Shown here: one piece after another, positions 3,951 to 38,639 of the stretch
How positions within the stretch are numbered: position 1 is the first letter of the stretch
Layout: every line of letters starts with the position of its first letter
Source of the DNA: Escherichia coli
GTDB taxonomy: Bacteria; Pseudomonadota; Gammaproteobacteria; Enterobacterales; Enterobacteriaceae
Strand: one strand, 5' to 3'
Assembly: GCF_003018115.1 (NCBI RefSeq)
Contig: NZ_CP027457.1
Length of the DNA stretch: 64,000 bases
The notes under the pieces: generated by a model
The model's database searches: none
What the model saw: only the letters and a program-made list of their open reading frames with translations
Told to the model about the DNA's origin: nothing
Translations under genes and position numbers: made by a program

Positions 3951-5267
3951 TCAGTTAGTTGCCGTTTGAGAACGGAAACGGGCAAAGATAAAGATGACCG
4001 CGAAGCAGAGTGCGGGGATCAGTTCAGCAGTGGGGATGTTGCCCGCCGCGTCACTGACAAAACCCATGACCGGAGTGACAATACCGCCGCCAATGATGGT
4101 CATAACGATGAAGGACGAACCGTATTTGGTGTCCTGGCCGAGATTCTTAATGCCCAGCGAGAAGATTGTTGGGTACTGAATCGACATAAAGGCGCTGCAT
4201 AAAGTCAGGGCTATTAAGCCCACATGACCGCCAGCGAAGGCTGAGATCAGGCACAGTGCCATAGCGATTAATGCGTAGGCGGCCAGGACTTTGTGTGGTG
4301 CGAAGCGACTGATGAGCCAGGTACCGGTGAAACGACCAATAAAGAAGCACACCATGGTTCCGGTTAAATAGTTAGCGGCAAAGCCTGCAGTCATACCTGG
4401 AATTTCTTCTACAGCGTAGCGAATCAAATAGCTCCAGCAGGCCGTTTGTGCGCCAACGTAGCAGAATTGCGCTAATACTGCCCAGCGCCAGTGGCGAATA
4501 CGCGCCAGGCGAGAAAGCGATGCGGAGAACGATCCTTGTTTGGCGTCACTGTGATTATCACTCTGCAATGCCGGGAATTTCGTCAGCATGATCAGCAGGG
4601 CGACCAGTAACACGATAGCCACGATGATCATATAAGGTGTCTGTACCGATAATACCAGGCTGTGTTTATACGCACTCAATTGCTCTGGAGACATTTTATC
4701 GAGAACGTCTTGCGATTGATGTGGCACGTTAGACAAAATAAGACTTTGCCCAAAGACAACCGCGATAATTGCGCCAAATGAGTTAAATGTTTGCGCAAGA
4801 TTTAAGCGGAAGTGACCACTGCTTTCCGGCCCTAATACCGTAACAAAAGGGTTTGCGGCAGTTTCCAGACAACCTAATCCGGCTGCAATAATAAATAGGC
4901 CAACTAAAAATAAGGTGTAGTTCATTATTTCTGCGGCGGGCCAGAATAATGCAGCACCCAAGGCATATAAAAATAACCCGGTAATAATTCCTGCTTTATA
5001 ACTGAGTTTTTTCATCAATATCCCAGCAGGAATTGGGATAATGAAATAACCAAAGTAAAAGGCCGATTGGATCAGGCCAGCCTGGAAATTTGTCAGCGTA
5101 AAAGCCTGCTGGAATTGAGGTAATAAAATGTCGTTAAGGTTATTGGCTACCGCCCAAAGAAAAAACAGTGAGCACAGCAGCGCGAATGGAATAATGTAAC
5201 TTCTGCTTTTCCCTGCATCTTTATCTACCGCACGGTAACTCTGCGTTTGTATTGATGTGTTTCCCAT
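3951..5267 (-). CDS. fucP: L-fucose:H+ symporter (MFS)
   Basis: 438-aa polytopic membrane ORF; first gene of fucPIKUR. Confidence 0.9.
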   Translation of the reverse strand: MGNTSIQTQSYRAVDKDAGKSRSYIIPFALLCSLFFLWAVANNLNDILLPQFQQAFTLTNFQAGLIQSAFYFGYFIIPIPAGILMKKLSYKAGIITGLFLYALGAALFWPAAEIMNYTLFLVGLFIIAAGLGCLETAANPFVTVLGPESSGHFRLNLAQTFNSFGAIIAVVFGQSLILSNVPHQSQDVLDKMSPEQLSAYKHSLVLSVQTPYMIIVAIVLLVALLIMLTKFPALQSDNHSDAKQGSFSASLSRLARIRHWRWAVLAQFCYVGAQTACWSYLIRYAVEEIPGMTAGFAANYLTGTMVCFFIGRFTGTWLISRFAPHKVLAAYALIAMALCLISAFAGGHVGLIALTLCSAFMSIQYPTIFSLGIKNLGQDTKYGSSFIVMTIIGGGIVTPVMGFVSDAAGNIPTAELIPALCFAVIFIFARFRSQTATN

Positions 5268-5424
5268 AGCATCCTCTTAGGTTCAGAAGCTTAAGCACGT
5301 AATCGGTTATGTTTTCAAAAGTGCAAAACCAGCGAGTTCGGGCTTCATATCAGTGAATATTTGCCTGTCTGAAATGAACTCATGGATTCATTTTCAAATA
5401 AAAAACGCTCTGTAATATGACGGC

Positions 5425-5624
5425 GGTCACACTTATTAGCTGGAAGGTGACTTTATGTGACTACCATCACTTTAATAATCGAAATTTCATGCCCGTTTCA
5501 GAAAATAAATCATAAAAAACACAAATCAGATGACCGTATTAATTGTTTGTGCCGAAAACGGTCATTCCGGGCTTGGAGGAATAGAAAATGACCGTTTTGA
5601 TAAATATTTTTAAGAGCGGTCATT
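5425..5624. promoter_or_regulatory. fucPIKUR/fucAO divergent control region: repeated ATGACCGT / ACGGTCAT motifs plus CRP-like TGTGA-N6-TCACT (5456-5471)
   Basis: Motif copies read at 5425-5430, 5530-5537, 5558-5565, 5588-5595, 5617-5624 in alternating orientation; assignment as FucR operators is inferred. Confidence 0.5.
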
Positions 5625-5812
5625 TTTAATGGGGTTATAAAAAGAGAACTTGCAGTTATTTACTGTGATTAGTTGAACCAGGTCACAAAATATAAGCTTG
5701 TGAATTTCTTTCTGGTTAATCAGGAAGAAGATGGTGGGTAATTAAACGGCTAATTCAATAGTGTGAAAGGAACAACATTATTGCCCTGTTTTGAATCAGA
5801 GAGAGGTAGCTA

Positions 5813-6460
5813 ATGGAACGAAATAAACTTGCTCGTCAGATTATTGACACTTGCCTGGAAATGACCCGCCTGGGACTGAACCAGGGGACAGCGGGGAACG
5901 TCAGTGTACGTTATCAGGATGGGATGCTGATTACGCCTACAGGCATTCCATATGAAAAACTGACGGAGTCGCATATTGTCTTTATTGATGGCAACGGTAA
6001 ACATGAGGAAGGAAAGCTCCCCTCAAGCGAGTGGCGTTTCCATATGGCGGCCTATCAAAGCAGACCGGATGCCAACGCGGTTGTTCACAATCATGCCGTT
6101 CATTGTACAGCAGTTTCCATTCTTAACCGACCGATCCCCGCTATTCACTACATGATTGCGGCGGCTGGCGGTAATTCTATTCCTTGCGCGCCTTATGCGA
6201 CCTTTGGAACACGCGAACTTTCTGAACATGTTGCGCTGGCTCTCAAAAATCGTAAGGCAACTTTGTTACAACATCATGGGCTTATCGCTTGTGAGGTGAA
6301 TCTGGAAAAAGCGTTATGGCTGGCGCATGAAGTTGAAGTGCTGGCGCAACTTTACCTGACGACCCTGGCGATTACGGACCCGGTGCCAGTACTGAGCGAT
6401 GAAGAGATTGCCGTAGTGCTGGAGAAATTCAAAACCTATGGGTTACGGATTGAAGAGTAA
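5813..6460 (+). CDS. fucA: L-fuculose-1-phosphate aldolase
   Basis: 215-aa ORF MERNKLARQIIDTCLEMTRLGLNQGTAGNVS..., class II aldolase. Confidence 0.92.
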   Translation: MERNKLARQIIDTCLEMTRLGLNQGTAGNVSVRYQDGMLITPTGIPYEKLTESHIVFIDGNGKHEEGKLPSSEWRFHMAAYQSRPDANAVVHNHAVHCTAVSILNRPIPAIHYMIAAAGGNSIPCAPYATFGTRELSEHVALALKNRKATLLQHHGLIACEVNLEKALWLAHEVEVLAQLYLTTLAITDPVPVLSDEEIAVVLEKFKTYGLRIEE

Positions 6461-37361: not shown

Positions 37362-38639
37362 TTACTTGCTGCTAGCTATTGCGGGGGCGCTATCAGCAGT
37401 ACGAATTTTTTGGAACAGCAAAAAGGTAAAGACAATCACCATGGCAAGCGCCGCCATTCCCATCAGCCACATATTGCGGTAGGCTTCTGCTGCGGGCAGG
37501 GTGTCTTGCCAGTGGCCGATAATTGGGTAAACGAAGACATCCGGCAGGAATCCAATCACCGAACAAATACCTACCGTGGTGCCCATAATGTAAGACGGTG
37601 TTCTCGCTTCGCCAGGGCAGGCCCAGTACAGCCCGCGTGAGGCGTAACAGGTGAATCCCAGCAGTATAATCAGGCCAATCCCCATCGCGACCGATTGCGG
37701 GTTAGAGTTCGTGACGAGCAGGGCAGTTAACGCCAGCAGGCCGAGTACGGAAAGGATTTGGATCACGCGGGTAGGGGATTTCACTTTACTGTAGGTGGTG
37801 ATAATGCCGCCAAGTGGGCCGCACAGCGCGCGGAAGATTTTGTTGATCACAATCCCCATGTAGCTCGCCGCCACCAGCGACATGCCGTACATTTCGGTCA
37901 GATAGTTGGTGGAGTAACTCAGAATGGCGTAGATGGTGAAGACACCAAAAATCACCATGCTGCAATACCAGGTGGTGCTGATGCGCAAAACGGCCAGGAT
38001 GTCGCTAAGCTGGAATGACTGTTTTTCTTCGTTATTGGCACTGCGCAGGTTGTTGTTATCGCTAACAAAAAACCAGCACAGAATCCCCAACAAGATGTAA
38101 ACCACACTATAGATGATAATGACCGTTTTCAGGCTGGTGCTGTCATCCGGTGCAAAGCGAGAAAAGACCCACATGGTAAACACCGCCAGCGACATTACAC
38201 CGACGCCGCGCAGCCCTTCCATCCAGCCCATAATTTTCCCTTGCTCGCTATGATCGCCAAGCAACGAGGCGGCTTTAATCGACACCGACCACAGCATTAA
38301 AATCGTTGTTATCGCAAAGGCGACCTGAATACAGAGCATTACCCACAGCGGTGGATACGTTGCCATTAACAGACCCAGTAATCCGGTAATGATCATCGCG
38401 GAAGTAATCATTTTGCGGTGTGAAAATTTATCGGCAATAACGCCGCTGGGGGCATAAAGAATAATAGCCGCAATACCAAAGGTACTCATTATTAAACCTA
38501 TCTCGGTATTGCTGAATCCCATAAATTTCGCCATGGGAATTTGATAAATATAACGTAAATAAGCCAGGTCGAAACTAACGCCGCCGCTAAAACTAATTAT
38601 CGCGAGGGTTATCCAACGGCGATATGAGTTGTGTTGCAT
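37362..38639 (-). CDS. yqcE: MFS transporter
   Basis: 425-aa polytopic membrane ORF. Confidence 0.75.
   Translation of the reverse strand: MQHNSYRRWITLAIISFSGGVSFDLAYLRYIYQIPMAKFMGFSNTEIGLIMSTFGIAAIILYAPSGVIADKFSHRKMITSAMIITGLLGLLMATYPPLWVMLCIQVAFAITTILMLWSVSIKAASLLGDHSEQGKIMGWMEGLRGVGVMSLAVFTMWVFSRFAPDDSTSLKTVIIIYSVVYILLGILCWFFVSDNNNLRSANNEEKQSFQLSDILAVLRISTTWYCSMVIFGVFTIYAILSYSTNYLTEMYGMSLVAASYMGIVINKIFRALCGPLGGIITTYSKVKSPTRVIQILSVLGLLALTALLVTNSNPQSVAMGIGLIILLGFTCYASRGLYWACPGEARTPSYIMGTTVGICSVIGFLPDVFVYPIIGHWQDTLPAAEAYRNMWLMGMAALAMVIVFTFLLFQKIRTADSAPAIASSK

Follow-up and report, generated by a model that had tools for sequence, protein, structure and literature searches.

The stretch of Escherichia coli DNA analyzed here, referred to as the window, spans 64,000 nucleotides. 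Between positions 192 and 7636 its minus strand contains open reading frames whose length and order fit fucU, fucK, fucI and fucP, and its plus strand contains frames that likewise fit fucA and fucO. For the corresponding K-12-type locus, the RefSeq annotation reads fucR-fucU-fucK-fucI-fucP / fucA-fucO; in the window, fucR is truncated and extends past the left end. The two genes that border the divergent control region are as follows.

3951-5267, minus strand: fucP coding sequence, L-fucose:H+ symporter, first gene of fucPIKUR (open reading frame and RefSeq annotation of the K-12-type locus).
5813-6460, plus strand: fucA coding sequence, L-fuculose-phosphate aldolase, first gene of fucAO (open reading frame and RefSeq annotation).

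The divergent fucP/fucA intergenic region comprises 545 bp (5268-5812). It shows 100% identity to the corresponding region of E. coli F9792 and 99.5% identity to that of a K-12 derivative, and it was found in 5024 of 5426 complete E. coli genomes. The other 402 complete genomes gave no match to this region. In at least one strain, TW10598 (NZ_CP035846.1), only the fucA-proximal 67 bp are left, which points to deletions of the fucP side. FucR of the K-12-type locus carries HTH_DeoR (PF08220, E = 6.6e-23) and DeoRC (PF00455, E = 1.6e-45) domains, in agreement with its assignment to the DeoR family in the first-pass annotation, which had been made from the window sequence alone. A sequence search with FucR against the PDB returned no relative at E <= 0.001.

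FucR boxes at the fuc promoters are not new: they are known from DAP-seq (2021) and were validated by mutation in 2024-2025. The motif that Baumgart et al. (2021) obtained by DAP-seq, in the form quoted by PMC11011485, has the core CGG(T/G)CA, flanked by A-rich sequence on the 5' side and T-rich sequence on the 3' side. Here, a 16-nt weight matrix was built solely from non-Escherichia orthologous sites; the consensus of the boxes, TTAAAACGGKCATTTT, agrees with the DAP-seq motif as quoted in that paper. The boxes follow the consensus AAACGG(T/G)CAT(T) (overall, TTAAAACGG(T/G)CATTTT), in which every box may have either T or G as the fourth core base. Five boxes are present in the fucP/fucA intergenic region.

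5489-5496, minus strand: box B1, ATGCCCGT (minus-strand reading AAACGGGCAT), fucP-proximal; a one-mismatch match of 11-12 bits.
5530-5537, minus strand: box B2, ATGACCGT, left half of pair U2; 17.0 bits, kept in 23 of 23 aligned species.
5558-5565, plus strand: box B3, ACGGTCAT, right half of pair U2, equal to OFucR2 (ccgaaaaCGGtCAtt, 5552-5566); 18.8 bits.
5588-5595, minus strand: box B4, ATGACCGT, left half of pair U3; 22.2 bits, the strongest motif match among the boxes, kept in 23 of 23 species.
5616-5623, plus strand: box B5, GCGGTCAT, right half of pair U3, equal to OFucR3 (ttaagagCGGtCAtt, 5610-5624); 17.0 bits, centred at -130.5 relative to the PfucAO transcription start.

Read from B1 to B5, the box orientations are < < > < >. 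Those of B2 to B5 alternate, with start-to-start spacings in the window of 28, 30 and 28 bp, and B4 and B5 together form a 42-bp palindrome (5585-5626) whose arms are 81% complementary. The counterpart of B1 is ATGACCGTTTGAG in 22 of the 23 aligned species and ATGACCGT in most other genera.

Effects of mutation have been published for two of these boxes. Fucose-induced PfucAO activity fell by ~30% when OFucR2 (B3) was mutated and by more than 50-fold when OFucR3 (B5) was mutated (PMC11011485); for OFucR2, the same paper cites the DAP-seq of Baumgart et al. (2021). A later report describes four FucR operators, OR0-OR3, all located downstream of the position between OCrp0 and OCrp1 at which IS5 inserts (PMC11894529). 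The multi-site FucR operator with associated CRP binding that had been proposed from the sequence is supported by the DAP-seq motif, by the OFucR2 and OFucR3 mutations and by OR0-OR3 (PMC11011485, PMC11894529), and the comparison with published FucR and CRP sites that had been suggested as a check equates B3 with OFucR2 and B5 with OFucR3 and matches all of OCrp0-OCrp3. No direct FucR footprint on the five boxes was found in the papers searched. The array is very probably made up of operators for FucR, a DeoR-family protein that activates the fucose regulon, in the control region shared by fucPIKUR and fucAO.

A cluster of this kind could also be a chance grouping of a genome-common hexamer. 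TGACCG/CGGTCA is indeed over-represented in the window generally, with 59 copies in 64 kb compared with 30.6 expected from shuffled sequences. The clustering itself argues against chance: outside the fucP/fucA intergenic region no stretch of 200 bp holds more than 2 copies; when 59 sites are placed at random, 5 or more fall within 200 bp with P ~0.0014; and none of 300 Markov-simulated versions of the window had more than 2 matches of at least 12 bits within 140 bp, compared with the 4 observed. Given, in addition, that box position and orientation are conserved across 37-47 species and that two of the boxes have published mutational effects, a chance origin is extremely improbable. Other strong matches to the matrix occur in the window at 38119 (20 bits), 868 (16 bits), 39910 and 56526; no partner at 28 bp was found for any of these four. 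The match at 38119-38126 is intragenic, within a 425-residue open reading frame on the minus strand (37362-38639), and that at 868-875 falls within the range of the fucK reading frame. All four were discounted and are probably chance or non-functional matches.

The CRP sites and the mapped core promoter elements of the region are listed below; CRP sites are given without strand.

5416-5431: OCrp0, CRP site TATGAcggcggTCACA, which holds CGGTCA at 5424-5429 (PMC11894529 and alignment).
5456-5471: OCrp1, CRP site TGTGActaccaTCACT (named in PMC11011485 and PMC11894529).
5672-5687: OCrp2, CRP site GTTGAaccaggTCACA, centre 5679.5, at -70.5 from the PfucAO transcription start.
5762-5777: OCrp3, CRP site TGTGAaaggaacaACA, in the fucA 5' untranslated region; ~30% reduction when mutated (PMC11011485).
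5740-5750, plus strand: PfucAO -10 element (aattaa, 5740-5745) and transcription start mapped by 5' RACE (C, 5750) (sequence and PMC11011485).

The first two sites read as the dyads TATGA-N6-TCACA (5416-5431) and TGTGA-N6-TCACT (5456-5471). In both OCrp0 and OCrp1 the half-sites are conserved and the spacers are variable, as is characteristic of CRP sites. The CRP-like site that the first-pass annotation had placed at 5456-5471 is identical with the published OCrp1.

That annotation had also described five copies of TGACCG/CGGTCA in alternating orientation, spaced by roughly 28-30 bp and including one given as 5425 (exact position 5424-5429). Read in this way, all five copies would be FucR half-sites in one regular ~29-bp array, and the copy at 5424 does match CGGTCA exactly and has the orientation that would extend the alternation. 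It nevertheless forms part of the spacer and the right half-site of OCrp0, a site given as taaTaTGAcggcggTCACActt, mutation of which abolishes CRP-dependent activity and so identifies it as a functional CRP site (PMC11894529). In the alignment of 23 sequences, TATGA and GTCACA are kept at OCrp0 and the CGG varies (for example GGTGGTCACA, CCCAGTCACA and GCTTGTCACA); within Escherichia, position 5424 is C or T. The copy scores -1.8 bits on the FucR matrix and lies 106 bp, rather than ~29 bp, from the next copy listed, and PMC11894529 places no FucR site upstream of the position at which IS5 inserts. A single array of five half-sites that includes 5424 is therefore improbable, and this copy was rejected as a FucR box. 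The other four copies (5530, 5558, 5588 and 5616) stand as B2 to B5, with the spacing of 28, 30 and 28 bp, in place of a uniform ~29-bp array. The five copies were moreover not the full set, as the conserved B1 (5489-5496) had been missed on account of the allowed G variant that it carries in E. coli.

On the fucA side, the PfucAO transcription start lies 63 nt upstream of the fucA ATG (PMC11011485), corresponding to 5750 in the window. CRP bound at OCrp2 is essential for PfucAO; mutation of this site lowered activity 14-fold under uninduced conditions and 350-fold under induced conditions (PMC11011485). In the same paper, the PfucAO -35 element is written 'TTGtgA' and placed at -96 to -91 from the fucA ATG. 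At the corresponding positions, 5717-5722, the window and K-12 both have TAATCA, and TTGTGA is present at 5698-5703, 36 bp from the stated -10 element. Position 5714 is T in K-12 and G in the window. A sigma-70 consensus scan of 5200-5900 gave no match, a result that is consistent with activator-dependent promoters.

On the fucP side, positions 5371-5406, between OCrp0 and fucP, form a strongly conserved block, GAATGAACTCATGGATTCATTTTCAAATAAAAAAC. This block probably represents the PfucPIK core promoter; if OCrp0 were located at -41.5, minus-strand GAAAAT (5390-5395) would be the -10 element. Distances for fucP are given relative to a transcription start inferred near 5382, on the assumption that OCrp0 is a class II site with its centre at -41.5 and overlaps the -35 region, which puts B1 at approximately -110. 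Between OCrp0 and OCrp1, K-12 has CTAG at 5440-5443 and the window has CTGG, with G at 5442. CTAG is the IS5 target in all propanediol-positive (PPD+) insertions that activate fucAO, and the consensus for IS5 targets is C(T/A)A(G/A). G is found at 5442 in 7 of the 9 Escherichia sequences compared, the window included; given that CTGG mismatches the target consensus, the classic route of activation by IS5 may be closed in most strains.

To compare the region across species, FucA-anchored loci were fetched from 80 genomes, 46 of which have divergent fucP and fucA; together with the window, these gave 47 regions. The order < < > < > is present in 37 of the 47, and an alignment of 23 enterobacterial fucP-fucA regions shows conservation of all five boxes, extending within the Enterobacterales from Escherichia to Yersinia, Hafnia and Edwardsiella. 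Mapping of the exact hexamer between species gave a patchy picture, and the reading of poor conservation was dropped once T or G was allowed at the fourth core base. Conservation in orthologous regions had been set beforehand as a test that could refute the first-pass proposal, and the boxes proved to be kept in 37-47 species. The start-to-start gaps in the 37 regions are as follows.

B1 to B2: 41 bp in 28 species and 42 bp in 9; n = 37.
B2 to B3: 28 bp in 36 species and 29 bp in 1; n = 37.
B3 to B4: 24 to 53 bp; n = 37.
B4 to B5: 28 bp in 28 species and 29 bp in 9; n = 37.
5566-5587, no strand: B3-B4 variable linker, the sole length-variable segment.

The gaps within B2-B3 and B4-B5 are constant while the length between B3 and B4 varies, and for this reason the fixed unit is the divergent pair ATG(A/C)CCG-N22-CGG(T/G)CAT and not the convergent pair. 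Divergent pairs with a fixed 28-bp pitch thus describe the boxes better than does a uniform array of ~29 bp. Distances to the CRP sites are similarly constrained. With a CRP-like 16-mer defined by at most two mismatches to TGTGA-N6-TCACA, the centre-to-centre distance from OCrp1 to B1 is exactly 29 bp in 37 of 37 species, and that from B5 to OCrp2 is 59-60 bp in 36 of 37. Among nine Escherichia sequences there are 98 variable columns, only 2 of which fall in the 40 box-core positions, both tolerated; the segment 5567-5584 contains 17 variable columns, and the linker also holds the 1-bp indel relative to K-12. The segment 5567-5584 is a mutational hot zone that adjoins near-invariant boxes. Judged by this comparison of sequences, the five boxes, the pitch of the pairs and the distances to the CRP sites appear to be under selection.

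Inverted repeats with arms of 8-12 nt separated by 14-20 nt do exist in this arrangement, and could conceivably work as a cruciform or an RNA hairpin instead of as protein-binding boxes. In that event partner positions would be expected to covary; the T/G position shows no covariation between partners (TT 12, TG 9, GT 7, GG 9), and it is the sequence that is conserved and not the complementarity. Given also that the region lies upstream of both transcription starts, mapped or inferred, and that no Rfam family was found at threshold, a function as a nucleic acid structure is highly improbable.

All box clusters found lie upstream of fucA in fuc loci, and ~30 loci with a FucA homologue and no fucP have none. 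Many genomes of Citrobacter, Atlantibacter, Buttiauxella and others have a FucA homologue of 82-88% identity at a locus that has neither fucP nor box clusters, presumably a paralogous and differently regulated gene cluster. In Serratia sp. DD3, one near-perfect 28-bp pair, AAATGCCCGTTTGCGATTAATTAACCTTAAACGGGCATTTTT (locus positions 2795-2863), is located upstream of fucA-fucO; here, the neighbours of fucAO encode a LacI-type regulator and a sugar-binding protein of the ABC type, with no adjacent fucP. Single pairs with the 28-bp pitch also occur in Photorhabdus and Mangrovibacter. In Edwardsiella (3 loci), the five-box array and the additional conserved block described below are present upstream of fucA (locus positions ~2630-2800), although the adjacent permease is only ~40% identical to E. 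coli FucP.

A further conserved element, termed the pseudo-box, lies between B1 and B2.

5512-5524, plus strand: conserved pseudo-box ATAAAAAACACAA (TTAAAACCCACAG in most genera); a conserved block scoring less than 3 bits as a FucR box.

The pseudo-box is placed exactly where a partner of B1 would be expected at the 28-bp pitch. It has the A-tract and the CA in common with a FucR box and lacks the CGG. Despite the conservation of the block, its score of less than 3 bits led to its rejection as a FucR partner of B1. In Photorhabdus, a genuine box (11.6 bits) occupies the position of the pseudo-box.

The constraints on spacing can be accommodated by the following tentative model, to which we assign slightly less than an even chance: the intergenic region would hold, instead of one shared FucR array, two position-locked FucR-CRP modules, in which a wrapped or bridged FucR oligomer, bound to divergent half-sites at the unusually long 28-bp pitch, assists CRP from beyond -110. 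FucR itself responds to fuculose-1-phosphate, and published work shows that inducer-bound FucR turns on PfucAO via B3 and B5, with B5 nearly essential and CRP at OCrp2 needed as well. By analogy with other DeoR-family proteins, an oligomeric FucR may occupy the divergent box pairs; UlaR is tetrameric on DNA, DeoR forms an octamer and AgaR forms tetramers (PMC10991401). The fucP-side module would comprise OCrp0, OCrp1, B1, the pseudo-box and the B2/B3 pair, and the fucA-side module would comprise the 42-bp palindrome of B4/B5 together with OCrp2, the two position-locked modules being joined by the free B3-B4 linker. The layout of conserved sites suggests one FucR-CRP module per promoter. The boxes would lie at approximately -110 to -180 for fucP, relative to the start near 5382, and at -130 to -160 for fucA. 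Given that the boxes are so far upstream, FucR probably aids the binding or action of CRP, through DNA shaping or contact, rather than contacting RNA polymerase. The authors of PMC11011485 have likewise speculated that FucR aids CRP binding.

The same boxes could be independent FucR sites, bound for example by one dimer per 15-bp site, with no pairing or modules and with the constant spacing a consequence of slow divergence in an essential region. Published work handles the sites as separate 15-bp operators, and a FucR biosensor gives a Hill coefficient of ~1 (PMC10046853). Promoter constructs bear on this question (PMC11011485): full PfucAO activity was obtained with the -270 construct, which carries B3, B4 and B5; the -206 construct, which carries B5 only, without B3 and B4, retained ~70% of the induced activity; and with the -166 construct, which has no box, most of the activity was gone. 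The activity of the -206 construct weakens a model in which the pair acts as the unit, and since B5 alone gives ~70%, pairing is not strictly required at PfucAO. It also counts against the pair model that B1 in E. coli has no recognisable partner, only the conserved pseudo-box. With half-sites at a pitch of 28 bp, furthermore, the two boxes of a pair do not share a face of the helix, an unusual arrangement for a simple dimer. Independent sites are in turn difficult to reconcile with pair spacers that diverge in sequence at a fixed length (28 bp for B2-B3 in 36 of 37 species, 28-29 bp for B4-B5 in all 37) while the linker ranges from 24 to 53 bp, with the recurrence of 28-bp pairs in Serratia sp. 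DD3, Photorhabdus and Mangrovibacter, or with the palindrome formed by B4 and B5. Independent, unpaired sites are accordingly a live, if less likely, alternative to the model of paired boxes in modules.

The fuc regulon is a classic model of co-regulation by an activator and CRP and of promoter evolution driven by IS5, and FucR-controlled promoters serve as fucose biosensors. As the existence and function of FucR boxes have been published already, the present analysis adds no new biology in that respect. Its modest gain is a corrected map of the sites, with five boxes, a look-alike that is a CRP site and a pseudo-box, together with comparative rules for their spacing. These rules lead to predictions that can be tested cheaply by mutagenesis and that concern how a family consisting mostly of repressors yields an activator working from far upstream. 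In the model with two modules, roles for B1, for B4 as the strongest box and for the pseudo-box are predictions that go beyond the published mutations of B3 and B5.

In relation to the work of Zhang, Saier and co-workers, OFucR2/OFucR3 and OR0-OR3 (PMC11011485, 2024; PMC11894529, 2025) represent the same locus and the same sequences. The core CGG(T/G)CA with its A-rich 5' flank, as in the published FucR operators, and OCrp0-OCrp3 are all shared with the window. The published scheme contains four FucR sites, with mutations for those equal to B3 and B5, whereas five conserved boxes and a pseudo-box are recognized here. No sequence for OR0 or OR1, and no description of the 28-bp pairing, of the fixed distances to the CRP sites or of the variable linker, was found in PMC11011485 or PMC11894529.

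Most members of the DeoR family are repressors that are released by their effector. DeoR, GlpR, AgaR, UlaR and CsqR/YihW have, like FucR, an N-terminal DeoR-type winged helix-turn-helix domain and a C-terminal DeoRC domain. FucR also shares with regulators of this family the use of repeated sites in one control region and of a phosphorylated sugar intermediate as effector. It differs in that it activates when effector-bound, and its boxes differ from DeoR-family operators in that they are located beyond -110, work with CRP and do not overlap the core promoter. The combination of AAACGGKCAT with divergent pairing at 28 bp appears to be specific to FucR.

Promoters that combine CRP with a sugar-specific activator bound upstream are known from MalT and CRP at malK-malE, from MelR and CRP and from RhaS and CRP. 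As in these systems, the fuc region is a divergent catabolic control region in which CRP sites lie between the activator sites and the core promoters. Both proteins are needed at fuc (PMC11011485), which is a further likeness. For fuc, the mechanism of synergy between FucR and CRP has been a matter of speculation only, namely that FucR helps CRP to bind. Unlike its counterparts in the MalT, MelR and RhaS systems, the fuc activator belongs to the DeoR family and is not of the AraC or MalT type.
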